Below are positions 3,113-57,700 of a stretch of 64,000 nucleotides of DNA, in pieces; the stretch's first letter is position 1, and each line of letters opens with the position of its first letter. The notes beneath the pieces are model-generated. The model was not told the DNA's origin. It did not search any database and was given only the letters and a program-made list of their open reading frames with translations. The translations under genes were made by a program, and so were the position numbers. Source of the DNA: a virus. Location of the stretch: IMG/VR virus record IMGVR_UViG_3300045988_167206, positions 64,001 through 128,000 of that record; one strand, given 5' to 3'.

Positions 3113-3149
3113 TAAAAAAAATAGACACCTTGCAATAGTGTCTATTTTA
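3113..3149 (-). terminator. strong Rho-independent terminator after the rep-tubRZ operon
   Basis: Stem ATAGACAC/GTGTCTAT (3121-3128 / 3138-3145). The minus-strand hairpin is followed by a T8 run, and T4 follows it on the plus strand. Confidence 0.75.
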
Positions 3150-3173
3150 AACATACGCTTATAAAATTTAAGT

Positions 3174-3941
3174 TTAAAGATTTACGAGATTTGTGTAATG
3201 AGCATCTAGAGTCATCACTGAATTGTATAATGTCGAAATAATAAAACCTTTCGGATTACTAATTTGCTTATCATAATTACGCAGTACATTAACAACGTAC
3301 TGAATATGAAACATTTTAACTTTTAAAAATGATGATTTTACAATATCAACTGAAATATCATTTCCGTTGATAGAAATATATTTCATATTGCTACATAATA
3401 CTTCAACCATAACATCTACGATATTGTCAACAAGCTTTTGATCAATCGAACCAACAAACACTGCATCGTAATCTATGTTTGTTCGTATAGTATTAATACA
3501 TATAGTATTATTATTTAAAGTATTATTATATATGGATGATTTTCCACTTGTGGAAGAACCAGCGGGTGGAAAAGCCACATGTGGAAAATCACCATCTGGC
3601 TCTACAGAACCCACATGTTGAAAATCCACATGTGGATCATCGCACACTTCATATTCATAGTAGAAACGTTTTGTTTCAATATCTTGAAATTTATATTGGA
3701 TCAAATATCCATGATCTTTCAATTCCCTCCATGCACCACGAAAAGAAGTTTCACCATCCGTAGATTTGCTTAATAAAAAATCTTTGTACAATGTAAAGCC
3801 ATCTAATGTAAGATATGACTCTATAATGGCAAGTAGCCCTTTAGCTTTAAGGGACAGTGTTTCGTCCCTTAAAGCCACGTTGCTTACCTGGGCATAGTAG
3901 GTTCTTTTCTTTCTGATCATGCCAGATTTTTTATCAGCCAT
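3174..3941 (-). CDS. RepA_N-like plasmid replication initiator (255 aa)
   Basis: The N-terminus YAQVSNVALRDETLSLKAKGLLAIIESYL...WRELKDHGYLIQYK fits a RepA_N-type winged-helix pattern. The C-terminal ISNPKGFIISTLYNSVMTLDAHY resembles the conserved tail of clostridial plasmid/ICE initiators. The central part carries iteron-like DNA repeats. Assigned from memory; no HMM was run. Confidence 0.55.
   Translation of the reverse strand: MADKKSGMIRKKRTYYAQVSNVALRDETLSLKAKGLLAIIESYLTLDGFTLYKDFLLSKSTDGETSFRGAWRELKDHGYLIQYKFQDIETKRFYYEYEVCDDPHVDFQHVGSVEPDGDFPHVAFPPAGSSTSGKSSIYNNTLNNNTICINTIRTNIDYDAVFVGSIDQKLVDNIVDVMVEVLCSNMKYISINGNDISVDIVKSSFLKVKMFHIQYVVNVLRNYDKQISNPKGFIISTLYNSVMTLDAHYTNLVNL
3544..3637. 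repeat. four iteron-like repeats inside the rep coding sequence (candidate origin)
   Basis: CCACTTGTGGAA (3544), CCACATGTGGAA (3575), CCACATGTTGAA (3611) and CCACATGTGGAT (3626). The core CCACATGTGG is a perfect 10-bp palindrome. Confidence 0.6.
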
Positions 3942-3949
3942 TTTCTCAC

Positions 3950-5005
3950 CTACTTATTTTTCATTTGCATTAATCGTTCTCTAGCAGATAATGGTTTCTT
4001 TTCTGGTATGGATCCAGAAATACTAATAGAATAGTCATCTTTGAATAATGTTTGAGTTTGAGTAGATTTCAAATCTTCCTCTATTTTCTTTTTATCATCT
4101 TGAATAGATTCGTACAGTTTATTGATGGTAGTTGCAGGATATTGAAGGCCACTCATAAATATCAAATTTGTTTTAGTTTGATATCCAACAAATAAATCTC
4201 TCCAATATCCAAATTGAAGCTGCAGTTCTGTAGTGTTGATTGAAATAGTTTTTCTTGTGTTGGAACTCTTGATTCCACAATAATACAAAGGATTACGAGA
4301 TTCAATATCACAAAATATGTTGTCTGTAACTGCCTTCTTTAGATCTGCTGTAATGTCAGATTGGTTTGGCTTTCTTGAAAATGTGTTCAAAATCCCATAT
4401 CCTGAACATTCTAACATAGAACAGATTTCACTATAATCATAAATGCCGTCTATAGAAGTAGAAACATCGGAAACGAGAGAATAGACAACTTCAGCCAAAA
4501 TCTCATTACTTTTCGAATAATTAAGTTCCTTATTATTATCTACGATAAAAATAGTGTGCTTTGCAGTTTCAATTAATTCCCTCAATGCTTCATAAGCATT
4601 TGTTTTAGCCTGAAGCGATTCTGAAAAATTAGGTATTGTAACTACCGGGATCACAATCTTATTTAATTCGGATTCAATAAGCTCTGTTAATAAAGCGCAC
4701 ATTCCGGAAAATGTTCCTCCACCAATAGATCCAAATACAAAAATATATCTGCCAGTTAAATGGCGTTCAATATATTTCAATATGTCTTCATAATTATTTG
4801 CTAAATAATTTTTAGAAACATTTCTATCTTTGTGGCAGCCATTTGCACCTTCCAGATGATAATAATGAATATTATCTGTGCCTAGACTCTGCAGGTCTTC
4901 CAGTGCGCTATTAATATAAAAACTATTTACTCCATATTTTTTAAATGCAGCAACTTGATTCCCTCCGCAAGCACCAACACCGAGGAACGAAAAATTATTT
5001 TTCAT
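3950..5005 (-). CDS. tubZ: TubZ-like tubulin/FtsZ-family segregation GTPase (351 aa)
   Basis: FLGVGACGGNQ is a T1-type GxGxxGGN loop, and FGSIGGGTFSGM is a tubulin-signature-like GGGTxSG. GGAGGT lies 7 nt upstream of the ATG. The start overlaps the upstream 90-aa wHTH gene by 11 nt. Confidence 0.8.
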   Translation of the reverse strand: MKNNFSFLGVGACGGNQVAAFKKYGVNSFYINSALEDLQSLGTDNIHYYHLEGANGCHKDRNVSKNYLANNYEDILKYIERHLTGRYIFVFGSIGGGTFSGMCALLTELIESELNKIVIPVVTIPNFSESLQAKTNAYEALRELIETAKHTIFIVDNNKELNYSKSNEILAEVVYSLVSDVSTSIDGIYDYSEICSMLECSGYGILNTFSRKPNQSDITADLKKAVTDNIFCDIESRNPLYYCGIKSSNTRKTISINTTELQLQFGYWRDLFVGYQTKTNLIFMSGLQYPATTINKLYESIQDDKKKIEEDLKSTQTQTLFKDDYSISISGSIPEKKPLSARERLMQMKNK

Positions 5006-5267
5006 CTTGATTACCTCCGACTATTTCAATTCCAGATTTTGTAATGTAATACATTTTTTCTCTGCCATCGGTTCCAGATTGACAAATCAAATTATTTGCG
5101 ATCATGAAATTGATATGTTTCCAGACAGTGCTTCTGGTCACATTTGTAATTTCCATCTCTTTAATTGTTAATCCGAAAATAGCAGAAGTAGCACCACTTT
5201 TAAATAGAGTTGTCAAAATCAAATAATCAGTTCGGCTAAGTTCTGCAGAGTGCTTATCTGTTCTCAA
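4995..5267 (-). CDS. tubR: TubR-like winged-helix DNA-binding protein (90 aa)
   Basis: Small wHTH pattern (LTIKEMEITNVTRSTVWKHINFMIANNLI...GREKMYYITKSGIEIV). It is the first gene of the operon, directly upstream of and overlapping tubZ. TTG start with GAGGTG 6 nt upstream. Confidence 0.6.
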   Translation of the reverse strand: MRTDKHSAELSRTDYLILTTLFKSGATSAIFGLTIKEMEITNVTRSTVWKHINFMIANNLICQSGTDGREKMYYITKSGIEIVGGNQDEK

Positions 5268-5331
5268 AATTTCTCACCTCTTTCTAAGTATTCTTATAAG
5301 TTGATATGGTTTCACAAGTGTTCGTAATTAG

Positions 5332-5360
5332 ATTATAATTAATATTGTTCAAAAAGTCAA
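5332..5360 (-). promoter_or_regulatory. near-consensus sigma-A-type promoter for tubR-tubZ-rep
   Basis: On the minus strand: TTGACT (5360-5355), a 17-nt spacer, then TATAAT (5337-5332). This lies about 65 nt upstream of the tubR start. Confidence 0.6.
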
Positions 5361-5421
5361 CAAAATGATTAATATATAATCAAAAAGTTTAAAACAAAAA
5401 CAACTAATAAGAATATTAATA

Positions 5422-5430
5422 TGATATAAT
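5422..5430 (+). promoter_or_regulatory. extended -10 promoter candidate for the plus-strand HTH gene
   Basis: TGATATAAT (TG-n-TATAAT) about 24 nt upstream of the ATG at 5454. The -35 element is weak. Confidence 0.4.
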
Positions 5431-5453
5431 GTAAATACCAGAGGTGATGAAAT

Positions 5454-5657
5454 ATGAAGATATCATACGAGAATTTATTTTTATACTTTTTTAAGAATAA
5501 TATAAATATGCTTGAGGCATCTAAAAAAAGTGGTGTAAGCAGAAATACACTTATGAAAATGAAAAAAAACGAACCAGTTCATTTAAATGTTATTCTCGCG
5601 ATTTGCGAGGCATATGATTTGGATTTATTTGATGTGGTAGAAATAGTAAGAGAGTAG
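5454..5657 (+). CDS. small XRE/Cro-like HTH regulator (67 aa)
   Basis: MLEASKKSGVSRNTLMKMKKNEP is a classic helix-turn-helix. GAGGTGATGAAAT lies before the ATG. The gene is divergent from tubR. Confidence 0.65.
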   Translation: MKISYENLFLYFFKNNINMLEASKKSGVSRNTLMKMKKNEPVHLNVILAICEAYDLDLFDVVEIVRE

Positions 5658-5698
5658 AAGAATTATCTTATTAAGTTCTTCTGATTTACTATTTTTTT
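5656..5698 (+). terminator. weak terminator-like hairpin between convergent genes
   Basis: Stem AGAAGAA/TTCTTCT (5656-5662 / 5676-5682) with a 13-nt loop. The T7 run starts only 9 nt later. Confidence 0.3.
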
Positions 5699-5753
5699 AT
5701 CTGAATCTCATATTTTTGTTATTTAGATACTAGGAAAATTTTCTCCCACAGAT

Positions 5754-6827
5754 TTAATTTGTAGCAAACAGTCCTTTAATAGATGCTGATGGAATAGCTT
5801 CGTATCCTTCACCAACAAGTCCCTGAAGATTTTTAATAGCAGTAGCATTTGCTGCAATTTTAGGTTTTTCTGTTGCCATATCAGTTTCAAGAGTTTTGAC
5901 TTTTCCTTCAACTGTCGTTACTCTACCTGAAACAGCTGTAATATTATCTGCGTTTGTTTTATCAGCAGCTTCAAGTGTTGGAATTTTCTTTTCTAAAGTA
6001 TCAATTCTTCCAACTGCGGCTGTTAAATCTTTAGCTTTTGCATACTGACTCAAATCAGAATCAGCAAGAGCTTTTGATACATATTCTGCAATGTAACCTA
6101 CAATATCTTTAGATGTAGCTGTGTCTGGAAGAGTACCGATAAGAGTTTTCAGTTTAGTGATATCTTCTTTATTAGTCTTGATCTGGCTGTTCATTCCAGC
6201 AGCGTCAGATGCATGACTTGAAATCCAGTCAGAAATTTCCTTTAAAGTGTCATAGGCTTCTGGAGCACCATTAACAATAGAAGCAACAGCATCAGATACC
6301 GCTTTCTTTACAGAACCATCGCCAGTACCATTTAATGTTGCAATAGCTGTTGTATTCTTGTTTACTTCCGCTTTTAATGCAGTATCATCATAATGACCAG
6401 CTGTTACAGCTTCTTTAATATAAGATACTACATCTTTGGATTTTGCACCTGCTGGAATAGTACCAACATAAGTCATTACTTCACCTTTTGCTTTTGTAGC
6501 AGATCCTGCCACATCAAAATCTGTAACTGACTTTCCAGAATCAATTAAATTACCATTTGCATCAAGCCCCGCAAGGTGGCCATTAACCGCACCAGTTACT
6601 TTGTCAGCTTTTCCACCATCTTTAGGGAGAGTAATAGTAAACACAGCATCTTCGGTTGTAACAGGAGCAGTTTTTGTGTAAAAATACAGTGTAAATCCGT
6701 CAGTTGACTGAGAAACAGTCTTAATAGAGCTTTTTACTGCTTCAGATATCTTTGAGTCGATTTGCACATTATGAAGTGATAAAAACTCTGTAAGATTAGA
6801 AAGTGTAGCGAATTGTAATTTAGCCAT
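5754..6827 (-). CDS. tail fibre / fibre-like coiled-coil protein (357 aa from the preferred start)
   Basis: The preferred start is MAKLQF at 6827, with GGAGG 7 nt upstream; the ORF track starts 6 codons earlier. NGAPEAYDTLKEISDWI is a motif typical of phage fibres, and the sequence has long heptad-like segments. Confidence 0.65.
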   Translation of the reverse strand: MAKLQFATLSNLTEFLSLHNVQIDSKISEAVKSSIKTVSQSTDGFTLYFYTKTAPVTTEDAVFTITLPKDGGKADKVTGAVNGHLAGLDANGNLIDSGKSVTDFDVAGSATKAKGEVMTYVGTIPAGAKSKDVVSYIKEAVTAGHYDDTALKAEVNKNTTAIATLNGTGDGSVKKAVSDAVASIVNGAPEAYDTLKEISDWISSHASDAAGMNSQIKTNKEDITKLKTLIGTLPDTATSKDIVGYIAEYVSKALADSDLSQYAKAKDLTAAVGRIDTLEKKIPTLEAADKTNADNITAVSGRVTTVEGKVKTLETDMATEKPKIAANATAIKNLQGLVGEGYEAIPSASIKGLFATN

Positions 6828-6845
6828 AATAGCTTCCTCCTTCAA

Positions 6846-8019: not shown

Positions 8020-11000
8020 TTATCCTTCACATGAGATTGAGAACATAATAAGCACTCCGGCAGTCTGAGGATAATAGTATCCATTAATTCTACCTGGAGT
8101 ATCATCTCCACCGTCAACACCATATAACCATGTGCCAGGACTTTGATCAACATCAGCAGATCTTGTAGGATATGCTTCATAAATATTTGGAGTTGAAACT
8201 TTAGCTCTACGTCTCACAAAATCACTGGTCATGAAAGAAATAGTAGAATCCGTTTCTATAGAATATGGTTCGCCAGATATTGTTGGATCAATTTCATATA
8301 CAGAAGGAATATAGAAATAACATTCTGATGTAGATGTTGTTTTTGCTTTATCAGCATTATTAGCAATTACATTTACTTTCTTAATAAGAGATTTCCATAA
8401 AGGAGGAATTGCCTTTGGTAATCTGGTATTCAACCATGAGTTAAGCGAAGATTTAGCCCATCCACCGGAAATATTTCCATATGCACAGTTTGCACTTAGA
8501 AGGTTTTTGCCGATAAATGTAATGTTTGCTCTCTTAGTTGTATTATCGGATAGATAATATTCTTTGTACTTAGCAACCATCATTGGAATAGTCTCATGTA
8601 CCCAAGCAGCAATATCCTTGCATTCACCATCACCAAGATCTGCATACCACAGTTTAGCCCAATGAATCTTTCCTTTTGCATATTTCTCATATTCGCCATC
8701 ATCAGCTTTTGAACATCCAAATACAAGAGTAGATGGAATCACAGGGATTCTGATAGCAGAAAGAGTGGTGGTTGACACTTCATTACCAGTCAGATTTGAA
8801 CAATATATATAAGCTTGTTCGCTTCCGGCTTTATGTCGGATAACAACAAGCTCTCTATCTGCAATACCTGCTGGATTTGTACTCTTTGTTCCCCAGTTAA
8901 GGTTTACATTTGAGCTATACCATAATCTGAATCCGTTTGAACCATTAGACTGGAAGCATTGTGCAAGAGTTGCACCAGAAGTATTTCCTGCGTCAAATTC
9001 AAAATCGATTGCAAATGTGAAGTCTCGGTCAATATCCATAATGGTAGTATTAGTATCAATATAATTGGTACCATCAAATTCAGTCGTTTCAGATATGAAT
9101 TCTTTACTTTCCACATCGTCATAATTATAATCAACACCAAGTTTAAAGTTTAATGTATCTGCTTCTTTAGTCTTTTCTTTTTCAAGACTCATCTTCATCA
9201 TTGTGTAGAGTTCAACTTCAGAAAGATTTCCAAGATCTTTTCCATCAAAGTATCCTGTAGTATACTCACAGGAATCAAATACTGTATAAATCTTCTTATT
9301 TCCTGTAACAAGACCGGATTTATCCCATTCTTTGAAGAGATAATACTTAAATGCAGATTCTTCAGCTGTATATCTTGGAGTTTCTCCTTCATATTCAATA
9401 GTTGAACCAAATGGCCCAGTAGAAGACTGCAATACAGTTTCAGATGCATTTAGAGTTGGTTTCAGAATATATTCAACAGTATAATTACGAATAACTGGAT
9501 CATATACAGCAGTAATTACTCTATCCGCAAATATTTTGGTAAATGCAGAATCCCAACGTTTAAATACAAAGTCATTTTCAACTGTACTCGGAATAGTAGG
9601 AGTTTTAATAGGATTTAAACTTCTTGTAAGAGGATCTTCACCATCTGCTCCTTTATCAACATACTGAATATCTAATACTGTATGAGCTTCATCAGCATTA
9701 ACACATGTAATCTTATACTGTACGATTAAAGAATCGTAGGAGACCTCAAGATTAGACCAAATACCTTTTTGTTCATCTGTTCCGATATACTCTTTCAATT
9801 CCTGATCACGAATTACAGGGATGTGAATTGTTCCGGTGAGAACCGAATGATCTGTATTAAATTCGTTTTCATCTTTTCCGGAAAGTTTCGCTAGTACTTT
9901 TAAGATATCAGTATTATCCAAATTCCAATTAATACCTGTTACAGTTACAGTCTTCAAAGATTTAATAGCTTTTTTAATAATACTTAAAGCGTCAATTTTA
10001 GAGTTCCTACAAATAAAAGTTTCAAGATTTTCATAAGAAGGAATAACTAAATCAGTAAGATTCTGTAAATCTTTAAATGTAAGAGTATTAATTGTTGCAG
10101 GAAGATAAGCATGTGTAATTTTTCCATGTGTTGCAAATGATACAGAAGAAATGATTGTTCCTGAAGCATTTAATTTCAGAAGATTTTCACATGCAGAAAG
10201 GTTAATAGAACCGGTAAGATTTGGACAATTTTGAACATCAAGTTCTTCAAGGAGAACGTTATTACCCATATTCAGATTAGTTAAGAAAGAGTTTTGATAT
10301 CCTTCTGTATCATTACCAATAATAAGAGTTTTCAGTTTAGAAGCCTTTGAAAAATCATTATCATGGATGTAACATGCTGATAAGTTGTTTAAAGCCTGAA
10401 TTCTGGATGCACAGTAGATCAATACTGCAGTATCATCCATATTCGTAAGATTTGTGGTAATTTCATATTCCTGTCCAGCTTTTGCACGTACTTGAGTTGG
10501 ATTAGCTGAGTTACCGTATAATACAGATATATACATATCAGAATATGGAACAATTCTTAATGTGTAATCTGGTTTTACAACAGCTTCTTTAGGAGTGTTA
10601 CACCTGAACATAATCTGGTCAGATTTTACATCTGTATGTACAAATTTAGTTCCCATATATGCATGCTGATCACGTTCCCATTGTCTTCTTTGATATTTTT
10701 TACGCCCGTTCATCATTTCCTGAAGGAATCTAATAGTTCCCGCCTGGTATGTACGTAAATATAATCTTTCGTAATGAAGTCTCCACAATTCTTCCGGGAA
10801 CATTTCTTGCCATGTATCAAATTCATTGATAAGGTGAGTGTCGCTCCAACAGTTTGCATTTACTGACTGATATAGATTACGTAACTGTGGTTGCATTAAA
10901 TCACGAATACGGCACCATAATACACTTTCAGCGGCATTAAAGATATAACCAGAAGATGGATTTCTGTCTGTTTTATAGTCAGTATCTTCTTTACCATAGG

Positions 11001-14000
11001 ACATAGTAAGCTCTCCGCTATTATTTATTCCCAAGCCTGTATCGTTATCGTAATCCCAAAAGTCAAATCTATAACCATTATTTATTGCTGCTTTAGAATT
11101 GTCTATTATATAGTATTGCGCCTTCTCGCCTGCTTCGGCTGCTTCAGATGCACTCATATAATGTTTAGCCCAATGAGGAAAGACATTTTTGGCTCTATTG
11201 TCTATCATTGTATATCTCAATGTGAATAAATATAAATATTCAGCAGCTTCTTCGATCATCCAATCTCCAAGATGAGCAACAAAATCTTCATCAGAAGAAG
11301 TAATAACAAATTCATAAAAATCGCGCCAGATTTGACGGTTATTTGTACGAATCTTTTCCTTTACTTCATCTGTAGAAATAGCAGTGCCGTCTTTAGAATC
11401 CCCACAACAATCATAGCGGAATTCAAACGAACCATCCCAATTATTGTAAAGGTTATCGTAAGCGGTATTGCCTGTTTTCCATTCTGTCTTTGTAATTGGA
11501 TATTTTATTGTTCCATCTGGATTTATTACGCCTGTCTGGAATGCTGAGTTCGGGAGAGTATTATCAGAAATTTCAATACAGAACTCTTTCATGTCATCTG
11601 GGTCGTAGGCTCTTGTAACGTCAGTCTTCTTAGAATCACCCATATTACCTAGAGAATAAAAATGCCAATCAGTATCTTGGAATTCTCTATGAGTAGAAAC
11701 ATCAGGATCACTCTCCTTAAGGAAGATCACACAATTAACAAACTCCATAGAGTTCTTGACTTTCGGATCTTTTCTTGTTGCCGGATTTGAATAAGGAAGA
11801 TAGTCATTAAATCGTTTTTGAAGTAATGCATTATTAGTCATTTCAGAAGAGGCCACATTTACCTTAAAGTTCCACCAGTTATTAGGAATTGAATTTCTTG
11901 TAAGAGATATCTTACCTGTTCCGTCAATAGTTTTACTTCCATCGCCAAGTTCAAGTATTGTCTTATAATCTGGATCTAATGTGATTTTGCTATTAACCTG
12001 ATGTTCTCCATCAAAGCAGCAAATAACATCAATATTTCTTGCAGCAAAACCATATTCATTAGAAGTTGTACCTTGTCCAGCATGATAACAATTCGTGAAT
12101 TTCCAGTTATCAAGCACAGGATCACCATTTGTGTAAATACATTGCATTGATGTATTTTTTACAAAATCTTTTTTATCATTTGTAAAGTGTGGTGCTTCAA
12201 TTTTAATAATCCTTAAATCCGGACACGCTTTTGCAACTGATTCAGGAGTGAGAGAATTGTTTTCATCATAAATTTGATTACGCTCAAATCTAGCAATCAT
12301 GTCATCTGCATCTCTTGCATCTGCAATGAAATTAGCGAGAATATCTGTATCTGTTAGAGAAGCAGAATATGCTTTCATTCTATAAATATGCACATCGCAA
12401 TCATCACAACCAATTGTAATTGGAAGCGGTTCATACTGATACAATCTATGTACGTCATTATAGATCATAGGTCTGCCACCGACACCATCTTCATAAGTCA
12501 TTATAATAGATGTCGCACCATCAGTTTTAGTATCAAGAGCATTTATATTAAACTCGTATTCAATAATATCTTCTTCACTGTATGGAAAATATAAACTGCT
12601 TGTTGAAGAATAGATATTTGCTTCATGTACATTCATTTCAAGACCAACAGGATTTGCATCTTTTTTATTGATACAAGATAGGAAAGTAGCGGAAGCATCA
12701 CGAACATTTGTAGTTTTGAATACAACTTTAAATTCAGAACCAGTCTGTTTTGGATCAATTCCAAAAAGATTATAATTAATTTTAACAGTTGTTCCGGCTT
12801 TTACACAAAAGTATTGGTTTCCATCTTTATCAATCTGATATCCACCATTTGACCAGTCAAAATTATCGGATACTGTCATTGCGATATTTGAATGATTTTT
12901 ATCAGACCAAAGTCTGTTTGTATCACTATTTGAATATCCAGTTGGATTAAAATCAAATTCAAGATTTGCAGTTACAGGCTCAACATCAATATCCAGCTTC
13001 TCAATATTTGCTTTAAGAATCTTTGTAACTTTTCGGCAGGAGATAGTCAAATCATGACTTCCAACATCTGAAGATTTATAACTCCAAGTCTGTACGGTAC
13101 GATTAACAGATAATGTAGATACAGTATTTCCATTTACAGCTAATTTTACTGTTGCAGGATTGTGATCAGGATCATATACAACATATGGAATATTTGTAGC
13201 ATGATACTGCTGAGTGGTAAATTCCTGCATTGCACAACCAATAATAGGAGTTCTTTCATCTGGATTAACCCAGATAATATCTTTAATGATTGTAGATGAT
13301 TGAATAGCCTGGTTATTTACAGTAGCTGTCATATATACTTTCAGTAAATGTGCGCCGTGAGATTGTTTGGTTAAAACATAAGACAACTGTCTACCAGAAG
13401 CAGTGGTGTTTACTGAATCTAATTCAACACCGTCAAGAATAAAGTGTACTGTCTTATTAATATTTCCATAAGGGATATATCTGAATGAGACTTCATCAGA
13501 ATAGAAGAGTGTATCATCAAAAGAACTCTCTAATTTAAAATCAACAATTGTGATTGTCCAAGTTTTTGTTGAAAGAGTACCAACACTATCAGTGATTGAT
13601 AATCTGATAGAATTTGTACCTGTTTTAAGAAATTCTGTAAGATCAATACTATTTCTACCTTGACCTACTGTAAGAGTAGACACAGTTGTATTATCAACTT
13701 TCCATACAGCTGTACCAATACCTGTGGAATCACCAACATTATCAACTGATGACCAAGTATATTCAATCACAGCTTTATTGCCAAGTAGGAAAATAGCATC
13801 GGCCGGAGTAACACGTTCAATTGTCATTGTAGAAGTAGTAGTTCCGCCGCCGCCTCCACCTTGAATCGTAAATGTTTTAACGGTTTCTCCATTTTCTTTC
13901 CAATAGAAAATGTTATCAGCATAATCAACATCATATTCAGTAGATGCCGGATTTTCTTCTAACTTTTTAACTCTTCCCTCTAAATTATCAAAATTTGTTC

Positions 14001-15333
14001 CTAGGCTATCAACGGCTTCTTTATTTCCGTCAACAGTCTGTTTCATGTTGTTGACTGTATTAGTTGCTTGAGACACATCTTCCTTGAGCTGTGGAATTTC
14101 TGCTACAGATGTTTTCAGCTTTCCAATAGCATCTTCATTGGTTTTAATTTTAGTATCACGAACTGTATCAGCTTCGTTTATTTTATCTAGAGAAGATGTT
14201 AGAACGGTAATTTTCTGTCCATTCTCAGCCTGTTGCTTTTGAATAGACTGAATACTATTGTTAATAGGAGTGATATTAGCAGCTATCCATTCAGTAGAAG
14301 GATCAATTGAACCAAGTTCAACAGAAGTAATAGGTTCTTCAATTCCTTTCTGATAAAAACTCAAAACACCTTTTCCATCAGAAGTAGTGTATTTTGCCTG
14401 CAATTTAGATAGGCTGTCAATATCAATTACTGTGTGAGCAATTTCTTTTTTACTATCTTTATATAACAGAGTAAGAGTCTGATTTGCTTTTATATAAGAA
14501 ATATCAAGATTTGCCAATCCATCCATATTATCTATGGCATTTCTAAGCAAAGAAATAGAATCATTAATACTTTTTTCTTGTGTATCAATTTCTGTTTTAG
14601 TGTAATAATTTATTAGAGAAGATGTATTATTGATCTCATCTCTGATTTCACTCATAACAGATTCTTTGATGTTATTCAGCTTTTCATTGACTTCAGTAGC
14701 TGCATTTTTAGCTTCAGTAGCAGCTTTTTTTGCTTCCTTTGTGTATTCTATAACTTTCTTTTCAAAAGAAGTCATCCATCCAGAATCCGAAGGCTCGATT
14801 GCTCCATTAATATCAATACCCTGTAAAATATTAATTTTTCCATTAGGTCTCGTGCTCCATGCATAAATCAGATTATCAACTTGTCCTGTTGCACGAATTT
14901 CAAATATATATTCACCTGGTGATCTGGTAAGTTTATCATCAATTAACCACCCAAAACAAATATATTGACTATTACGTTTTACATTGACAATGGAATATTC
15001 TCCAGGAGTTCCACCAGTTAATTTATCACTATAACGAATACAAATCGTCATTTCGGATAAATCAATACCATCATAGTATCTTGGAATTTTGAATGGTATG
15101 TACTGACTGTTTGATTCTTGCGTAATATTGATCTGCGAAGAATCCATCGTAATATTTTTATTTTCATCTACAGTAGAATATTTTTCGTCATTATATTGGT
15201 TATATTGATCATAGCCGGATACAATCTCATAATCATCTCCTGCATATACAGCTACACCATTATCATCTGAAGCAAGCGTCATTGCTTCAAATGATGTAGC
15301 CATAGCTTTTCTTTTTGCGTCTTTAAATGACAT
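8020..15333 (-). CDS. giant multidomain tail/receptor-binding protein (2437 aa)
   Basis: Uninterrupted 7.3-kb ORF. By eye it contains these regions in order:
- a BppU-like N-terminal region
- a coiled coil
- a G6 linker followed by Ig-like repeats
- a CotH-like motif pair (IDNRAKNVFPHW ... FDFWDYDNDTGLG)
- a leucine-rich-repeat block (NLSACENLLKLNASG..., LTFKDLQNLTDLVI...)
- two Listeria-Bacteroides-type repeats (FVFKRWD, YLFKEWD)
- a LamG/ConA-like segment
- a C-terminal WAKSSLNSWLN motif. Confidence 0.8.
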   Translation of the reverse strand: MSFKDAKRKAMATSFEAMTLASDDNGVAVYAGDDYEIVSGYDQYNQYNDEKYSTVDENKNITMDSSQINITQESNSQYIPFKIPRYYDGIDLSEMTICIRYSDKLTGGTPGEYSIVNVKRNSQYICFGWLIDDKLTRSPGEYIFEIRATGQVDNLIYAWSTRPNGKINILQGIDINGAIEPSDSGWMTSFEKKVIEYTKEAKKAATEAKNAATEVNEKLNNIKESVMSEIRDEINNTSSLINYYTKTEIDTQEKSINDSISLLRNAIDNMDGLANLDISYIKANQTLTLLYKDSKKEIAHTVIDIDSLSKLQAKYTTSDGKGVLSFYQKGIEEPITSVELGSIDPSTEWIAANITPINNSIQSIQKQQAENGQKITVLTSSLDKINEADTVRDTKIKTNEDAIGKLKTSVAEIPQLKEDVSQATNTVNNMKQTVDGNKEAVDSLGTNFDNLEGRVKKLEENPASTEYDVDYADNIFYWKENGETVKTFTIQGGGGGGTTTSTMTIERVTPADAIFLLGNKAVIEYTWSSVDNVGDSTGIGTAVWKVDNTTVSTLTVGQGRNSIDLTEFLKTGTNSIRLSITDSVGTLSTKTWTITIVDFKLESSFDDTLFYSDEVSFRYIPYGNINKTVHFILDGVELDSVNTTASGRQLSYVLTKQSHGAHLLKVYMTATVNNQAIQSSTIIKDIIWVNPDERTPIIGCAMQEFTTQQYHATNIPYVVYDPDHNPATVKLAVNGNTVSTLSVNRTVQTWSYKSSDVGSHDLTISCRKVTKILKANIEKLDIDVEPVTANLEFDFNPTGYSNSDTNRLWSDKNHSNIAMTVSDNFDWSNGGYQIDKDGNQYFCVKAGTTVKINYNLFGIDPKQTGSEFKVVFKTTNVRDASATFLSCINKKDANPVGLEMNVHEANIYSSTSSLYFPYSEEDIIEYEFNINALDTKTDGATSIIMTYEDGVGGRPMIYNDVHRLYQYEPLPITIGCDDCDVHIYRMKAYSASLTDTDILANFIADARDADDMIARFERNQIYDENNSLTPESVAKACPDLRIIKIEAPHFTNDKKDFVKNTSMQCIYTNGDPVLDNWKFTNCYHAGQGTTSNEYGFAARNIDVICCFDGEHQVNSKITLDPDYKTILELGDGSKTIDGTGKISLTRNSIPNNWWNFKVNVASSEMTNNALLQKRFNDYLPYSNPATRKDPKVKNSMEFVNCVIFLKESDPDVSTHREFQDTDWHFYSLGNMGDSKKTDVTRAYDPDDMKEFCIEISDNTLPNSAFQTGVINPDGTIKYPITKTEWKTGNTAYDNLYNNWDGSFEFRYDCCGDSKDGTAISTDEVKEKIRTNNRQIWRDFYEFVITSSDEDFVAHLGDWMIEEAAEYLYLFTLRYTMIDNRAKNVFPHWAKHYMSASEAAEAGEKAQYYIIDNSKAAINNGYRFDFWDYDNDTGLGINNSGELTMSYGKEDTDYKTDRNPSSGYIFNAAESVLWCRIRDLMQPQLRNLYQSVNANCWSDTHLINEFDTWQEMFPEELWRLHYERLYLRTYQAGTIRFLQEMMNGRKKYQRRQWERDQHAYMGTKFVHTDVKSDQIMFRCNTPKEAVVKPDYTLRIVPYSDMYISVLYGNSANPTQVRAKAGQEYEITTNLTNMDDTAVLIYCASRIQALNNLSACYIHDNDFSKASKLKTLIIGNDTEGYQNSFLTNLNMGNNVLLEELDVQNCPNLTGSINLSACENLLKLNASGTIISSVSFATHGKITHAYLPATINTLTFKDLQNLTDLVIPSYENLETFICRNSKIDALSIIKKAIKSLKTVTVTGINWNLDNTDILKVLAKLSGKDENEFNTDHSVLTGTIHIPVIRDQELKEYIGTDEQKGIWSNLEVSYDSLIVQYKITCVNADEAHTVLDIQYVDKGADGEDPLTRSLNPIKTPTIPSTVENDFVFKRWDSAFTKIFADRVITAVYDPVIRNYTVEYILKPTLNASETVLQSSTGPFGSTIEYEGETPRYTAEESAFKYYLFKEWDKSGLVTGNKKIYTVFDSCEYTTGYFDGKDLGNLSEVELYTMMKMSLEKEKTKEADTLNFKLGVDYNYDDVESKEFISETTEFDGTNYIDTNTTIMDIDRDFTFAIDFEFDAGNTSGATLAQCFQSNGSNGFRLWYSSNVNLNWGTKSTNPAGIADRELVVIRHKAGSEQAYIYCSNLTGNEVSTTTLSAIRIPVIPSTLVFGCSKADDGEYEKYAKGKIHWAKLWYADLGDGECKDIAAWVHETIPMMVAKYKEYYLSDNTTKRANITFIGKNLLSANCAYGNISGGWAKSSLNSWLNTRLPKAIPPLWKSLIKKVNVIANNADKAKTTSTSECYFYIPSVYEIDPTISGEPYSIETDSTISFMTSDFVRRRAKVSTPNIYEAYPTRSADVDQSPGTWLYGVDGGDDTPGRINGYYYPQTAGVLIMFSISCEG

Positions 15334-22837: not shown

Positions 22838-25800
22838 TTACCTATTCCGTCCGGTCAGTTTCTTCCAGTCCTTTGACATTTTCTTTGTGAAATCATCAAA
22901 CATAATACCACTCAGTTGATGTGCAAGATTCTTTATATCCAACTCACTGTCAATTCTGTCTACATTCAGATTGATCTCTGGATTAAAAGTAATATTCTGG
23001 TTCTGTACAGATGGAACATTATTCAGTTTCGCTCCATTGTTTCCGGTCATCATGTCCGTAAATTCATTCATAGAAGCAATGGAAGGTTTCAGCAACTTGG
23101 TAAATTCTTCTGTCAGGACAGTTTCTCCCGGTCTGGCTCCGATAAATCCGGTGTCACCATTGCGGATAATCGCATCTCCAAGCATTGTACCCATATCAGC
23201 CGGGATAAGATTACGGACAACTCCACCCTTGGAAAATCCAAAAGTCTGTAACTGCTTGAGCAGGTTTGTCTTCTGAGTTCCTGTCCATTTGCTATAGTTA
23301 CCCGGATATTTCAGTCCCAGAATCTTGGCAGCACTCACTAATTGAGCACCTGTAACATCTTTGCCCTTTTTCTTAAAATGCTGTATAAGTTCATGGTTAT
23401 TTTTATAGTCCGCTGGCTTAAAGGTTTTATTCTTCAGGTTTTTATACCACTTTGTCAGTTGATTCTTCTTGATGGATTTCTGAATCTGCTCATTAAACTT
23501 CTTCTTATCATTCAAGTCTTTGTCAGACTTTCCAAGGATCAGACTGTCTTTGATTTCCTGACGTTCCCCATATGAGAACTTGTACCCTGATTTATTCAGT
23601 GCGTCATTTACCGTCTTAGCATATTTATCATAGTTTTTCTGACGTACTGTAACATTAAAGGTTACAGCCGCAGCAGAAGAGACTACTGGATGCACAGTAA
23701 CTGTAGTTTTACCTGATTTTTTGCCAGTTACAATAAAGCTGTTACCATTTTTCTGAGCAGTAGCAATTGAACTGTCTTTTACTGTAAGCGTAAAGTTCTT
23801 CAGATTATCAGTAGCAGCGTTCTTGTAGTTTACCTTTACTGTCTGTTTCTTTCCAACATATATGGTTGCACTCTTTGGGCTTAGTGAAAGTGCAAGTTTA
23901 GCACTATAGGATTTACCATTCTGGTCATAGCCAATATTATTAGAAGCCTTACCAGCACTTTCGGAATCCTTGAGTGCTCCACTAATAGCAGCATCCGCTT
24001 TGGAATCACTTGGAATGCCAGAAGTATCAACATTGGTGTAATTTCCCGGATGATTCTTTGCTTCATTCACGGTTTCGTTGGTAGAATTCTTAATTGTATT
24101 GGCATTCATCAGATCTTTGAACAGATCGGCAGTCTTATAACCAGTTTCATCAAGAATCTTACTGATCTCATCGAAGGTTTCCTTGTAAGAATTCTTGACT
24201 TCAGAGAGCATATCATTGATGACAGACTTCTGAAGATCTGTGTTGGACTTCAGAGACTTTAAGGTGTTATCCAGTGCATCATCTGCTTTTTCGGACAGAT
24301 CATCATATCCTTTGGATTCCATATCAAGCTGATGCTCATACTTGGTATCTGCAAGATCTTCTTCCTTGTCTTTCAGATCAGCCTTGAGTTTCGCTAACTT
24401 AGCCTGTGCAGCAGCGTTAGTGGTTCCTTCAAGGGCAGCAATCTGTGCTTTGAGTGCATTGATATCTTTGGTCTTATCCTTAATGGTCTTATCGTATTCA
24501 TAGTAATCCTTCTTATTGTCAAGAGCTTTCTTACGCTTATCGATATTCTCCTGAAGCAGATCATTTTCTTTGGTGATCTTATCTGAATACATATCAAGCA
24601 GATTCTGCTGGCTGGAATATAAAGACTTGGATGTCTGTTGAATCTGGTTTAAGGCATTTTCTGATCGTTCTTTGTACTCATCAGCTGTAACCATACCGTT
24701 TTTCTTTAATTTTTCAAGTAAATCAAGTTCAGCGGTACAGTCAGAAATCTTCTGTTTATACGCATCCATTTCCTTATTGATGAGAGAGATATTTGCAAGC
24801 CCGGTATCTGTAAATGATCCATCATCGTTATAAAACGTATCAGAATCCATCATATCACGAAGATTTCCATAATCTTCAATCAGATCATCCAGTTTATCCT
24901 GGGCTTCATCAAACTGTTTAAATCTGAGATCAACAATGGATTTCTTCAGTTCAGCATTACTGTTTGCAGTTTCCAAAATCTTCTTGTCAAGTTCTGCAAG
25001 CTGATCTGCATATTCCTGATATTCAGCAGATCCTGCATTGAGTGTTAGCATTTTTTGTTGTACAAGATTCTTCTGTTCCTGCAATGCATTGATGGTGTTA
25101 TTATTTGTGGTGATCGCATTTCGGTAATCAGTCTCAGTGATACCTTTTGCAAAATCACCTGTCTTCGCGTCATAATAACGGTTGGCATCCTTATAGTCTC
25201 TGTACGCTGACTGTTTTTCTGACGCACGAGTGTATTTATCAGTCTTATACTGAGCAGCATTTGCGGCAAGCTTATCTAACTGATTGGTCAATTCAGCTGT
25301 AGCCTTTTTACTGTCATTTAAAGCTGTTCTTAGCTCTTCCAGACCTGCAAGAGCTTCTTTGTAGAAAGTAGAATTCACTCCGTACTTCTTCTTGATCTGA
25401 TTAAGCTGTTTCTGATATTCTTTAATTTCGGATGTTATCAGATTTGTCTGAGTGTTCTGGTTGTTTCTCTGTTTTATAATATTCTGATAATAACCAGAAC
25501 CAACTCCCTGAGAATTTCCAGCTTCAGAAGCCCAATCATTTAAGCTGCTAAGAGTGTTATTCTGATTCTCATATACACTTCTCAGAGCATCATATTTATC
25601 AGTTACATTGTCAAGTCTCTGCTGATATAACTCTTTTTCTTGTGATTTCAGGTCTTGAATGGCTTTGTCACATTCTACGATCTTGTCATACCATTTCTGA
25701 TAGGCTTCGACTTTGGACTTGTCTGTTTCACTCAAGGATTGTATGTCTACGGTTCCATCCTGTACTTTCTTTTTAAGAGCAGCAGATAAACCAATCTTCT

Positions 25801-28800
25801 TGGCATAATTATCAGATGCACGAACATATAAATTACGCCCTTTAATATAATCCTCCATCAGTGTATTTGAATCATTTATTGCTTTTGTCAGATAATTATT
25901 TTTAGTAGAAAGGACAGTAGAATTTTCTGATTTTGACTGAGCAAGATCAATGCGATTCTCAAATCTAGTTACAAGTCTTTCGAACCAATCAACAACGTTT
26001 TTCCATGGATCTTCCCAGCTTTTAGAAGAAGATGAACTTCCTCCACCAGATCCACCTGAAGAACCAGAGTTTCCACCACCACCGGAATTATTATTTCCAG
26101 AAGATTTAGTAGAAGAGGATTTTTTTGAAGAAGTATCTTTAAAATTAAATCCAGTAAGAGCATAAGCGTTACAGCCTAAACTTCCAGTGGCATAAGCCCT
26201 TGCATTACTAGAAGTTTTTCCATGCTCTAGTAAATCTTTTGTCTGAGAAGCATTAAATATAATGTCTCCCTTTTTAAGATTTTCAAAATGTGGACCACCT
26301 GGAAGAAGTGACCATACTCCATCACGAACAATTGATTCCGTACCTACTTCATTTGTGAGAGCTGTTTCATTTTTGCCTAAAGCAACATTTCCTCCAGCGT
26401 GAGCAGAAGAGAGTGGTTTCAAGTTGAGCATATTGTATGCAGTGCCATCTGCATGAGCTATAGAAGTCATTGTACCAGAAGCACTAGCACCTTTTGGCGC
26501 ACCTTCTACCTTTGCATGATATACAACTATTCCACTTTTATTTGGAGGAGTCCATGATGCAATATTACTAGCATTAACAATATAATTCACAACCCCTGTT
26601 TTGTCCGGTGGTTTATATGCTTGAACATCACTGTCTTCAACCGTATATTTAGCTTTAGCATCTTTGTCCTCTGGTTTATAAGAATCAACCTCAGCACTAT
26701 CTTTTTTAATAGTGGCATTAACAGTTATTTGTTTGTTTTGACCATTTAATTCGTCCGCTTTTGCATTAATAGCATCAAGTTCTTCTTGGTTTTGTACATC
26801 ACAAGTAATTGTTACAGGTGTATTATCTGGAACAGATTCCATAGCAGAAGTAAGATCTTCAACCTGATCCTCGCCGGTTACAGAAACATCTACTGTGGCA
26901 GTTGTGCCTTGTGGAATAGAAGCTAATGAATTTTTTAAATCATCTGTGCCTCCGGAGGTAGAGAGATTCGCCTCAATAGTATAAGTACTTCCAGACAAAT
27001 TCTGTAAGTCAGCCGACGTTTCTTCTGCTTCTTCCTGTGCTTCTTCAAGGCTAGAAGTATCGACTTCAGGTTTAAGAACACCCAATCCTTCAAGAGCCTG
27101 TACAAGCTGGTCTTTTGTTAGGCCGGCCTGATCAGCAAGATTCTGCAATGCATCTTCGGCTTGTTCCATACCTTCAACATTATAAGCACCATCACCAAGT
27201 TGGATTCCTTCAAGATCAGCGGCTGTATATTGTTTCAGAGCATTGAAATCAGCTTCAGTTGCTTCTGCATTTGCTTCATGAGCCTGTTTTACAGCTTCAA
27301 GAGAATCGGCGTATTCTTTGGCAGCAGTTGGATCAGAAATTCCCATTTCCTCTGCGGTAAGAGGAGAGTCAAATGTTCCAATGCCCTTATCGTGAAGCAT
27401 CTGATTAAAAGCATCTTCGTCAACTTCGAACTCAGGAGTTAATTTAATTTTATTATCCTTAGCTAATTGCTGGATACGATCGTACAATCCTTGAGCATAC
27501 TCCTGTTGCGCCGGATCATCTTTAACCTGTTGGTATTCTTTTGCAAAATCATTGATTGTCTGTTTTACAGTATTCAGATTTTGCACTTCACGGTCAGTAG
27601 CACCATTTACATATGTATCAAGAGCAGTATTAGCATCATTGACTTGATTCTTTAAATCATCTACAACTTGTGCTTGCTGTTCAATCGCATATTGTGGTGC
27701 ACCATTGGCAACTAATTCAGAGTACTTTTCTTGGGCAGAAATAAGCTCGTTAGTCTTTTCCGTAACATTAGCCTGTCCTTCAGCTACAGATGTAATGTCT
27801 GTAACAACAGCACCCATATCGTCATAACGTCCAAGATAATCTCTAAATTGTTCTTCTCCCATTCCGAGAGTTTTTGCGGCATCAGCGGAATCAGTAAATG
27901 CCATTTGCCATTGTTTGGAACCATCTTCTAGAGTTTTATAAGTAGCTAAACCTTTTGATTTAAGAAGATCAAGAAATTTCAATGGTCCAGATGCATCGTC
28001 TGTATAATATGGTTTCCATTTATTATAGTTTTCAATGAAATTATCTTCATCGCTAAACCCATAAGGGGAGAAGTAAGCAGCACCTTCTTTAAAATCATCT
28101 GTACCGGTTTCACCGTTATCGTACATTTCTTTTAAAGATTCTAACTTACTCTTTGTTGCTTTATAATGATCTCCTGCATTTGGAGTACTTTCAGCGTTGG
28201 CAGCTCTTTGCCATTGACTGGTCTGTTCCTGCATATTTTTATACTGAGCCATGTATTCATTTTGAAGATTCTTAAGTTCTTCAAGTTTTTGTTTTTCTGA
28301 CTCAATAATATTGCCATTGGAATCATAGATTTTCTTCTCTTGATCAGCAATCTGAGATGCAAAATCTTTTGTGACCATTTCATTTTGAGCTTTAGAAAGT
28401 TCCTGGAATCTATCAGTATTTAACTGTAATCCCTTTGCAGATCTTGTAAACAATCCATTTATATCAGTTCCCTGAGCAGTAAGATCACTAAACTGAGTAA
28501 CAAGATTCTTCACGGAGTCACTTGTTAATCCAGTTTCACTATTTGTTTCTCCAATAGCAGTACTCAAAGCACTGGCCAGATTTGTAACATCAGTAATAGG
28601 AAGATTCTGGATTTCTTCAAGCCATCCGGCCTGAGAAGCTTTCATATTCTCTATGGACATTTGAGCAGACTGGATTTGATCCTGGTATCCTTTTATCTTC
28701 TCATTGTCTTCATCAGTAAGAGGAGAGATACCTTTACTTTCTCTGATTGTACGGATGTTATCCTGGTAATCTTTAATCTGTTTATTCAGATTTGAAATCT

Positions 28801-31134: not shown

Positions 31135-31161
31135 TTATTTAATATAGGAAGGAAGATGTTT

Positions 31162-31710
31162 ATGGCTCTTATAACTTGTCCAGAATGTGGTCAAAAAATT
31201 AGTGATAAGTCTCCTGCATGCATCCATTGCGGATATCCTTTACAAGAAATAAAAAAATATGAAACTATATGGAATGGCCATGACATATCTAAAATTAATG
31301 AATATTTAGATAGTCTTAATGCTAATGAAAAGCAAGATTTTATTTTGTTCTGTGAATATATAGAAGATCGTAATAAACCATTGGTCGATCCAACAAAAAA
31401 AAATACAAATAAACCATTTCAAGGAGAATATTATAATAAATTTTATGATTTTATGGCAGAGCTAGGATATTATTATAAAATATCAAATGATGATGCCGGT
31501 AAATTCATCTTAGATTATTTACGCAGCAAAAATTATACCTCTCCTCAACCATCAACTCAAACCAATCAAGTCCGTTGTCCAAAGTGTGGCTCTACATCAA
31601 TCACAACAGAGAAGAGAGGATTCGACCTTATGTGGGGATTCCTGGGATCTGAATGGGTTACATACAATGTATGCCAGAAGTGTGGATACAGGTGGAAGAT
31701 TGGAAGATAG
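31162..31710 (+). CDS. double zinc-ribbon protein (about 182 aa)
   Basis: The preferred start is MALITCPECGQKISDKSPACIHCG at 31162, after TAGGAAGG. The C-terminal ribbon is RCPKCGS...CQKCGYRW. It lies on the opposite strand to all flanking genes. Confidence 0.6.
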   Translation: MALITCPECGQKISDKSPACIHCGYPLQEIKKYETIWNGHDISKINEYLDSLNANEKQDFILFCEYIEDRNKPLVDPTKKNTNKPFQGEYYNKFYDFMAELGYYYKISNDDAGKFILDYLRSKNYTSPQPSTQTNQVRCPKCGSTSITTEKRGFDLMWGFLGSEWVTYNVCQKCGYRWKIGR

Positions 31711-31730
31711 AGAGATAGGAGAGAAATATT

Positions 31731-42126: not shown

Positions 42127-42693
42127 TTATTCCTTATATTTAGAGCAAATCATATCAGCAATCTCTTCTTGTACGCGACCTTCTTTAGCTTTATGTAGAA
42201 GAGAGCAGTTTCGTTTATATCTTTTACATGATTTGCATTTATCTTCAAATTCATTTAGATCTTTCTGGCTGTCAAAGATGCCAGTAAAATCAGTCTTATA
42301 AATCGTATATTCAATTCTTGGATTTTCTGAATCGTATAATACTTTAATTACACGTTCACAAGCCATATTATCATCAACCCAGATAACACCGGAATCAGTA
42401 ATAGCATCAAATGCCACTTTCCAATAATTATTTGTATCCATATCAATTCTTGGAAAATAAAAAACAGCATCTACATAATAGTGCTGCATAGGATCCGGAT
42501 CAGTTATCCAGTTTTGTTCAATTGCCTGTTGTTTAACATATTCAATAAATTCTTTTTGGAACTTTTTTGCTTCAGCAGTCTTATAACTCATTGCCATAGC
42601 GCGCCCGTTTTTTGTGACGGTGCGATATGCTAGATAATGGTTCACTGAAACAAAATTTGTGACGGTTAATTTTAATGTCTGAGTATTACACAT
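42127..42693 (-). CDS. rusA: RusA-like Holliday-junction resolvase (188 aa from the preferred start)
   Basis: VSVNHYLAYR...TAEAKKFQKEF...FYFPRIDMDTNNYWKVAFDAITDSGVIWVDDNMACE fits the RusA pattern (D.DN..K...D.L...gv..DD). There is an extra Cys-rich C-terminal tail. The preferred ATG is at 42693. Confidence 0.65.
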   Translation of the reverse strand: MCNTQTLKLTVTNFVSVNHYLAYRTVTKNGRAMAMSYKTAEAKKFQKEFIEYVKQQAIEQNWITDPDPMQHYYVDAVFYFPRIDMDTNNYWKVAFDAITDSGVIWVDDNMACERVIKVLYDSENPRIEYTIYKTDFTGIFDSQKDLNEFEDKCKSCKRYKRNCSLLHKAKEGRVQEEIADMICSKYKE

Positions 42694-57695: not shown

Positions 57696-57700
57696 AGAGA

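Follow-up and report, generated by a model that had tools for sequence, protein, structure and literature searches.

The DNA analysed here is a window of 64,000 nucleotides from the viral record IMGVR_UViG_3300045988_167206 (positions 64,001 to 128,000 of that record), and our subject is a minus-strand operon of three genes, tubR, tubZ and rep, which lies between tail-fibre genes at window positions 5267-3174. From comparison with public assemblies, we conclude that the phage integrates into the ygiQ gene of its host. We read the operon, with a probability of roughly 0.6, as a replication-origin cassette fused to type III (TubR-TubZ-tubC) DNA positioning that serves the free circular genome of this integrative phage. 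A first-pass annotation, made from the sequence alone, had argued from the lack of a visible integrase in the 64 kb that the element is maintained as an extrachromosomal phage-plasmid. The lack holds for the window, but the inference drawn from it does not, as an integrase, a phage attachment site (attP) and host junctions were all found outside the window. That annotation had itself named an integrase and integration junctions elsewhere in the genome as observations that would count against its reading, and both are present.

Integration into the host gene ygiQ

Within the window, no integrase was detected by tblastn with two related integrases or by PHROG scans of almost all open reading frames (ORFs) of at least 200 amino acids (aa); for the two ORFs outside the PHROG scan (255 and 202 aa), other scans gave no recombinase match. 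Identity is 100% between the window and the readable parts of the ENA contig k119_99331 (126,640 bp), for which 12.8-13.1 kb at the left end and 10.4 kb at the right end were compared. Just past the holin gene, 6.3-7.9 kb to the left of window position 1, this contig carries a tyrosine integrase of 390 aa together with attP. The order past the left end of the window is fibre genes, a GH25/CHAP endolysin gene, the holin gene, a spacer of ~0.4 kb, a ygiQ fragment and the integrase gene. The ygiQ fragment in attP duplicates, over 321 bp, the 3' end of a radical-SAM gene of the YgiQ type, and the integrase is encoded on the opposite strand. Direct repeats of the AATGGTGTCA type flank this fragment (fetched loci L024:19162-20718 and L032:19425-20258) and are likely the arm sites of the integrase.

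Junctions between phage and host ygiQ (attR) were present on three independent scaffolds of 312, 255 and 118 kb (L034, L036 and L033). The phage on L034 is 99.95% identical to the window phage over 13 kb, and L036 and L033 carry the same or a closely related phage. At these junctions the holin-side arm enters a full-length ygiQ of 635 aa and the G+C fraction changes from 0.33 to 0.52; many further contigs end within the shared ygiQ stretch. The empty host attachment site (attB) was also recovered, with ygiQ standing among a peptidase M23 gene, relA/spoT and genes for a pseudouridine synthase and a signal peptidase, recU, hisZ and hisG. In a three-way alignment, attB equals attP over ~325 bp up to the ygiQ stop codon, corresponding to the last 107 codons, and attR follows the host sequence to one side and the phage sequence to the other, which is the pattern of Campbell-type insertion. 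Because attP holds the exact ~325-bp 3' end of ygiQ, insertion rebuilds the gene. The identity block of ~325 bp is unusually long for an att core. Chimeric assembly of the host-joined scaffolds was considered and rejected, since the three independent scaffolds, the empty attB and the exact 325-bp identity of attB and attP agree with one another. ARAGORN called no tRNA-type att sites in the fetched loci.

The tubR-tubZ-rep operon and its candidate sites

The self-contained three-gene operon between tail-fibre genes described in the first-pass annotation is borne out, its ORFs and signals lying where they had been placed. The features of the operon and its immediate surroundings are as follows, in window coordinates.

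3118-3148, minus strand: intrinsic terminator closing the operon, with a 12-bp stem and a T run.
3174-3941, minus strand: rep, encoding a 255-aa initiator of the TP901-1 Rep type with a DnaD-like winged helix-turn-helix domain, a disordered linker and a DUF6017 C-terminal domain.
3486-3533, no strand assigned: AT-rich repeats adjoining the iterons, two 18-nt copies 30 bp apart, candidate DNA-unwinding element.
3542-3637, no strand assigned: four iterons CCAC(A/T)TGTGG(A)AA with the palindromic core CCAC(A/T)TGTGG, candidate origin within the linker-coding DNA of rep.
3950-5005, minus strand: tubZ, encoding a 351-aa GTPase of the tubulin/FtsZ family that matches Pfam Tubulin and the TubZ structures of the plasmid prophage c-st.
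4995-5267, minus strand: tubR, encoding a 90-aa winged-helix protein, predicted centromere-binding adaptor, with a TTG start and c-st TubR (6tey) as the best PDB match.
5262-5331, minus strand: array phased at 10 bp, with ~7 GAAC/GAAA-type units from the -10 box to the first tubR codons, candidate tubC and operator.
5332-5362, minus strand: sigma-70-type promoter TGTTGACT-17-TATAAT, matching 11/12 consensus positions, with both hexamers fixed in 8 aligned relatives.
5454-5657, plus strand: Cro/C1-type helix-turn-helix (HTH) gene of 67 aa, candidate regulator of the operon (Pfam HTH_26, E=5.6e-8).

The three genes form a single tight transcription unit, with an overlap of 11 nt between tubR and tubZ, a gap of 8 nt between tubZ and rep, and a Shine-Dalgarno sequence ahead of each. 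The proposal that the 351-aa protein is tubulin/FtsZ-like, with GVGACGGN and GGGTFSG loops, was confirmed in both respects. The protein matches Pfam Tubulin (E=2.4e-15; 57.8 bits against a cut-off of 33) and Tubulin_2 (34.1 bits against a cut-off of 27), and its residues 1-310 align with the c-st TubZ structures 4xcq/3v3t (E=2.6e-25 and 1.3e-24). The T1 loop GVGACGGN, the G-box GGGTFSG and the T7-region DxxE (D190/E193) do not vary among relatives, c-st included, and the LSAREKLM tail at the C-terminus is conserved among relatives. The alignment with c-st reaches residue 310, and Pfam TubZ_C_3 scored 22.6 bits, under its cut-off of 27. TubZ is 27% identical to the TubZ proteins of c-st and D-1873 (tblastn), and its matches among GenBank phages were c-st, D-1873 and Bacillus phage G only. 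The best PHROG is phrog_17961 (E=1.4e-25), which has no assigned function, and the PhuZ PHROG matched at E=1.7e-7. A split tubZ was observed in one IMG/VR relative (L019:9986-11040), where ORFs of 106 and 248 aa reflect a frameshift or a sequencing error.

The gene product previously described as a small winged helix-turn-helix protein proved recognizable as TubR. A profile of 8 family members, searched against the PDB, matched c-st TubR (6tey) at E=1.2e-7, with the next match at 0.027, and hhalign gave a probability of 96%. The single sequence also had 6tey as its top PDB match, albeit weakly (E=0.022), and the pairwise comparison with c-st CST190 gave E=3e-6 and 26% identity. The tubR gene stays with tubZ down to 30% identity. 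Ratios of nonsynonymous to synonymous substitution rates (dN/dS), computed across relatives in which synonymous sites are near saturation, were 0.08-0.30 for tubR, 0.07-0.12 for tubZ and 0.15-0.20 for rep; this range of 0.07-0.30 indicates purifying selection and thus a cassette in use.

The third gene had been annotated as encoding a RepA_N-like initiator, of which the initiator part stands and the RepA_N part does not. Rep resembles TP901-1 REP, labelled 'replication protein, experimental' in its GenBank record, with 31% identity over 218 aa (BLASTP, E=4e-22). Its N-terminal half matches PHROGs for replication initiation and a DnaD-like loader (PHROGs 4707, 428 and 186; E=1e-13 to 1e-7), and its C-terminal half matches Pfam DUF6017 (E=8.5e-21). 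In Pfam, DUF6017 was the sole match of the 255-aa protein, and RepA_N (PF06970) was absent at E<=0.1. Membership of RepA_N was rejected on this ground, the layout with an intragenic origin being analogous only. Identity with TubY was likewise rejected, as the best match to c-st CST188 had E=4.3 and Pfam found no MerR-type domain. Searches of the PDB with the single sequence and with a 44-sequence profile returned chance-level matches only (E=0.1 or worse), NCBIfam matched nothing, and a literature search for DUF6017 found nothing. An AlphaFold2 model built from a 44-sequence alignment had a mean predicted local distance difference test (pLDDT) score of 76 and consisted of a winged-helix domain, a linker and a helical C-terminal domain. 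Linker residues 106-143 had pLDDT<50 and are predicted to be disordered. In Foldseek, the N-terminal domain resembled RctB domain 1 (probability 0.99), primosomal DnaB (0.92) and the DnaD N-terminal domain (0.85), with E-values of 0.1-0.4.

The DNA encoding this linker contains the candidate origin. All iteron matches with at most one mismatch in the 64-kb window fall inside the 96-bp stretch 3542-3637; with at most two mismatches, 18 matches were counted versus 7.1 +/- 2.6 in shuffled sequences. Exact copies in related phage loci were confined to the rep linker, apart from one stray copy elsewhere in a distant locus (L023), and the array is retained in relatives with near-saturated synonymous sites. 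At the site of the AT-rich repeats, L016 and L018 have 15-bp tandem repeats of the AATAATAATACTATA type, and the corresponding part of TP901-1 rep contains A-rich repeats of 15 bp. An origin within the initiator gene is a layout known for lambda O and RepA_N plasmids. A further iteron copy with two mismatches, ACACTTGTGAAA, lies in the tubR leader (5310-5321, minus strand). Rep might also touch the control region of its own operon through this copy, or the copy may be due to chance.

The operon's promoter, reported as TTGACT-17-TATAAT at 5360-5332, was recovered by a consensus scan. Promoter-like matches in the AT-rich region of the operon occur at shuffle level (17 observed versus 17.4 expected). 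The sequence TGTTGAC-17-TATAAT is unchanged in all relatives down to 65% TubZ identity, and the surrounding intergenic DNA has diverged. The strong terminator reported at the end of the operon was found at 3148-3118; in L012 and L015 its position is taken by non-homologous hairpins. The protein encoded by the HTH gene is VanU-like in NCBIfam (E=2.6e-11, under the curated cut-off), and the gene is divergent to the operon in all relatives.

Alignment of relatives was needed for the phased array in the leader to become apparent. It consists of GAAC, GAAA and TAAC units, 7 to 9 per phage, with [GT]AA[AC] motifs nearly all in one phase. The autocorrelation at lag 10 was 0.47-0.57 versus ~0.2-0.38 at other lags, and was significant against shuffles (p<=0.0005) in 7/7 sequences tested. 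Classic multi-copy iterons upstream of the promoter were sought, and the repeat search gave weak two-copy families only. In footprinting of c-st tubC, the TubR iterons are TTGAC and A/TGAA and TubR covers the promoter (PMC6009700). Motifs of both kinds were visible upstream of c-st tubR in our comparison. Based on its phasing and on sharing the motif class of the c-st iterons, we take the leader array as candidate tubC and operator.

Possible roles of the cassette

The closest characterised system is TubZRC of c-st, a plasmid prophage of Clostridium botulinum, comprising TubR (CST190), TubZ (CST189), tubC and TubY (CST188). It shares with the window phage the gene order tubR then tubZ, identities of 27% over 310 aa for TubZ and 26% for TubR (each having its c-st counterpart as best PDB match), TTGAC/(A/T)GAA-type motifs near the promoter, a host in the Clostridia (probable for the window phage) and a large tailed phage as carrier. 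It differs in its third gene, which encodes the MerR-type TubY where the window phage has Rep with a candidate intragenic origin, and in the split blocks of its array upstream of the promoter, in contrast to the 10-bp phase from -10 box to start codon seen here. As to the carriers, c-st is kept as a plasmid, and the window phage, for which int, attP, attB and attR were recovered, is integrative. The modulator TubY, present in c-st and several Bacillus plasmids but not universal, was not found downstream of tubZ here. The Bacillus tubRZ (repX) replicons pXO1, pBtoxis and pBsph also link replication to TubRZ, both physically and in function, and have a TubR that represses the operon (PMC6009700), but these are plasmids without a separate Rep of the present type. 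In the searches made, no Bacillus plasmid TubZ surfaced as closer to the window TubZ than c-st TubZ.

Two other phages offer partial parallels. Rep (ORF13) of the temperate lactococcal phage TP901-1 is of similar length, is 31% identical over 218 aa, has an acidic/proline linker (PDSDFPDVAFP versus PDGDFPHVAFP) and A/T-rich 15-bp repeats in its gene, and belongs to an integrative carrier. Unlike the window gene, it lies in a conventional early operon after ssb and not behind tubRZ, and its iteron sequence differs; the Pfam DUF6017 C-terminal domain is a feature of the window protein. The second parallel is AlpA/AlpC of CGP3 in Corynebacterium glutamicum, where a large integrated prophage likewise carries a two-gene operon for a DNA adaptor and a cytomotive filament (PMC4446434). 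The CGP3 adaptor binds the upstream promoter region of its operon (PMC4446434), and the candidate TubR site here overlaps promoter and leader. AlpAC of this 187-kb integrated prophage is induced early, acts on the excised circular phage DNA and is required for its efficient replication (PMC4446434), a role established by experiment there and proposed by inference here. AlpC, however, is an actin-like protein (type II logic) not homologous to TubZ, and the AlpAC operon has no fused initiator.

We infer every step of the mechanism that follows. After infection or excision, once the genome exists as a free circle, the conserved sigma-70-type promoter would be fired by host RNA polymerase. Rep would bind the CCACWTGTGG iterons in its own gene through its DnaD-like winged helix and open the adjoining AT-rich repeats, and its DUF6017 domain would recruit a helicase. 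TubR would coat the 10-bp-phased GAAC array over promoter and leader, thereby repressing the operon, and the TubR-array complex would be captured by treadmilling TubZ filaments via the conserved C-terminal tail of TubZ. Phage genomes under replication would then be moved or drawn apart by these filaments. Once the prophage is integrated, TubR, the divergent HTH protein or both presumably keep the operon repressed.

Since the phage integrates, plasmid maintenance is not needed for lysogeny. A role in the excised or lytic phase is therefore favoured by integration itself, by the kinship of Rep with that of the integrative phage TP901-1, and by the precedent of AlpAC in CGP3. Several observations weigh against this reading. 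A promoter and terminator of its own within a late region are the classic layout of a prophage-expressed gene and would fit plasmid-type maintenance, and c-st, whose TubRZ is the closest one characterised, is a plasmid prophage. In described systems tubC is found upstream of the promoter, whereas the candidate here follows the -10 box; the 3' part of the array also coincides with the ribosome-binding site and the start codon, sequences under constraint for other reasons. Structural matches of Rep in Foldseek have weak E-values (0.1 or higher). Finally, about half of the phage genome was seen, and the remainder may hold a second initiator or partition system.

The competing explanation that survives best is a facultative dual lifestyle, in which integration into ygiQ is normal and the cassette lets the circle persist as a low-copy, actively segregated plasmid prophage. 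We consider it possible, at less than half the weight given to the excised-phase role. Occasions for such carriage might, equally tentatively, be hosts without a usable attB, the time before integration, or a carrier state. In its favour, a complete set for replication and candidate partition is combined in a single operon that looks autoregulated and has both a host-type promoter and a terminator of its own, and the homologous c-st system stabilises a plasmid prophage (PMC6009700). Contigs in the attP form of 126 kb and 200 kb were obtained from stool metagenomes, and a distant rep homologue and a divergent HTH gene lie beside a resolvase on a small element (L057). Virions or induced cells would, however, equally yield attP-form contigs, and among long contigs integrated copies are at least as frequent (3 versus 2). 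The nearest characterised relative of Rep, moreover, is from the integrative phage TP901-1 and is not a plasmid maintenance protein.

Improbable, in our estimate, is a centromere-free role like that of PhuZ in phiKZ-like jumbo phages, in which a TubZ spindle positions replication factories or capsids in the course of lytic growth, TubR is a mere repressor and the array a mere operator. PhuZ is also a phage tubulin aiding the replication and positioning of phage DNA, the match to its PHROG is weak (E=1.7e-7), the window phage is large (~127 kb or more), and deletion of PhuZ, like that of AlpC, lowers phage DNA replication (PMC4446434). Yet TubZ is far nearer to c-st TubZ (E ~1e-25) than to PhuZ, for which the sequence match is much weaker. 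PhuZ systems, found in strictly lytic nucleus-forming phages, have neither TubR nor a centromere, whereas tubR is here translationally coupled to tubZ and conserved to 30% identity, and the C-terminal tail of TubZ is conserved.

The obligate extrachromosomal phage-plasmid without integration functions, comparable to c-st, P1 and N15, which the first-pass annotation had favoured, now appears very unlikely. The integrase-free 64-kb window and the plasmid-like replication and partition cassette are as that reading would have them, but the same contig has an integrase and attP, three attR junctions lie in ygiQ, and the empty attB was recovered. It survives only if all three host-joined scaffolds are chimeric, which is improbable given the 325-bp attB/attP identity and the clean alignment. 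Least credible is that the cassette is left over from a captured plasmid and is now inert and functionless: it does stand amid unrelated late genes and tubZ is split in L019, but throughout a deep clade all three genes have dN/dS of 0.07-0.30, conservation extends to the promoter and to both repeat arrays, and the exact TubZ recurs in 73 data blocks.

Genomic setting and significance

The mid-fibre position of the cassette, noted earlier as unusual, is real, and sister phages carry HTH-tubR-tubZ-rep beside an integrase instead. In L014-L019, with 65-69% TubZ identity, rep is followed by a tyrosine integrase gene on the opposite strand, a dUTPase gene and small early genes, so that the cassette sits at the border of the late and early regions; the integrases of this clade are mutually 24-89% identical. 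In the window clade, rep and int are separated by ~9.7 kb of fibre and lysis genes. As the cassette adjoins int in the sister phages, it belongs to the lysogeny/replication border of the genome, and its embedding among fibre genes is, from the gene orders compared, a lineage-specific yet conserved rearrangement. A Cre-like dimer resolvase was considered for the recombinase beside the cassette in the sister phages and set aside, because the enzyme at the orthologous position in the window phage has demonstrable attP, attB and attR sites.

Parts of the cassette also occur separately. Distant rep homologues without tubRZ still pair with a divergent HTH_26 gene (L057), and distant tubRZ pairs (30% identity) occur without a rep of the window type. 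An opposite-strand XRE/CI-like HTH gene of 232-234 aa lies upstream of tubRZ in 2/3 distant loci examined (L021 and L022). These arrangements suggest an insertion of tubRZ downstream of a regulator-controlled promoter and ahead of rep.

The fibre-like flanks of the cassette match Pfam PTR, Mtd_N and tail PHROGs at 493-2814, and one tail-fibre PHROG at 5754-6845. The protein encoded at 493-2814 has 720, 725, 773, 778 or 942 aa among closely related or near-identical phages. A strain-variable spot lies beside the cassette in L007, L011, L036 and L033 (equivalent to ~5660-5750, between a 357-aa gene and the HTH gene), where some strains have extra ORFs of 50 and 88 aa, or of 69, 517 and 71 aa.

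Judged by its sequence, the phage is an SPbeta-like integrative temperate siphovirus. Pfam YonG_N and YonJ_CC were matched at 56295-57596 and 57770-58957, an HU-like DNA-binding gene lies at 63584-63859 (minus strand), and the portal protein shares 26-31% identity with its counterparts in large Firmicutes phages, SPbeta-like ones among them, a distant kinship. Megablast of 25 kb against GenBank phages gave no match. Human-gut metagenomes contain the phage clade in abundance, and TubZ in its exact form was found in 73 data blocks from public assemblies. The nearest named relatives of the host ygiQ are from Blautia and Lachnoclostridium; the host is probably a gut member of the Clostridia. A TubZ of 81% identity is encoded in the isolate Ruminococcus sp. 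AM36-2AA on scaffold 1 (499 kb), the same DNA as a 177-kb IMG/VR provirus. In this isolate, ~1 kb past the holin gene at the phage-host transition, a truncated tRNA-like 5' half (L020:20900-20960) resembles tRNA-Arg CCG by eye and is not called by ARAGORN; it may mark the att site of this relative. A sister metagenome contig passes from phage DNA (G+C fraction 0.3) through a truncated tRNA-like fragment to host-like membrane-protein genes (0.45), a transition which implies that this lineage integrates at another site.

Further features of the window lie outside the cassette. Ten minus-strand tRNA genes (57620-57696 and 61629-63544: Leu-TAG, Tyr, Trp, Ser, Thr, Leu-TAA, Gly, Met, Pro and Asn) comprise an array of nine, upstream of the packaging genes, and a single gene located between the YonG-like and the YonJ-like gene. 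A plus-strand island of two genes (31102-33014) breaks up the long minus-strand late operon and encodes a 202-aa zinc-ribbon-like protein and a 427-aa protein without a PHROG or NCBIfam match; the island could be a moron or a defence or counter-defence gene. Two giant minus-strand ORFs are present, one of 2763 aa (22838-31129) with no PHROG match and one of 2437 aa (8020-15333) matching PHROGs of unknown function only. The tail-gene region contains minus-strand genes for an HNH/homing endonuclease and a RusA-like Holliday-junction resolvase (34479-35393 and 42127-42744). A ClpP-like protease (59270-59917) and a metallo-beta-lactamase/beta-CASP nuclease (59904-61349) are also encoded on the minus strand, and Bro-N and Thg1-like genes follow past the right edge of the window (L045).

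The individual parts of the cassette are, from their similarities, homologues of known parts. What appears new is the combination and its carrier, namely tubRZ fused to a TP901-1-type rep/ori cassette, without TubY and with a 10-bp-phased leader array, in an integrating SPbeta-like gut clade. Full-text literature searches found no description of TubZ in an integrating phage; in the IME8 paper, tubZ is merely a polymerase chain reaction marker for plasmid p1593. Our results also carry a warning, as partition and rep genes on an integrase-free partial contig do not suffice to classify a phage as a phage-plasmid; in the present case the integrase was situated 6-8 kb beyond the window. The presence of a relative in the cultured isolate Ruminococcus sp. 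AM36-2AA makes the role of the cassette experimentally testable.

TubZRC systems have so far been studied as stabilisers of plasmids or plasmid prophages. The finding of conserved tubR-tubZ joined to the phage's own origin cassette in an integrative phage suggests another role for them. In ordinary temperate phages, cytomotive filaments may be put to use while the genome is a free circle, on the model of AlpAC in CGP3; another possibility is that certain gut phages keep both options, integration and carriage as a plasmid. It is conceivable, although we rate it as the less probable case, that a working plasmid-type replication and tubulin-partition cassette lets each lineage choose between insertion into ygiQ and a stable, segregated episome. 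If true, this would make the phage an integrase-positive phage-plasmid hybrid, and the dual lifestyle would be common to a clade of ~130-180-kb phages of gut Clostridia.

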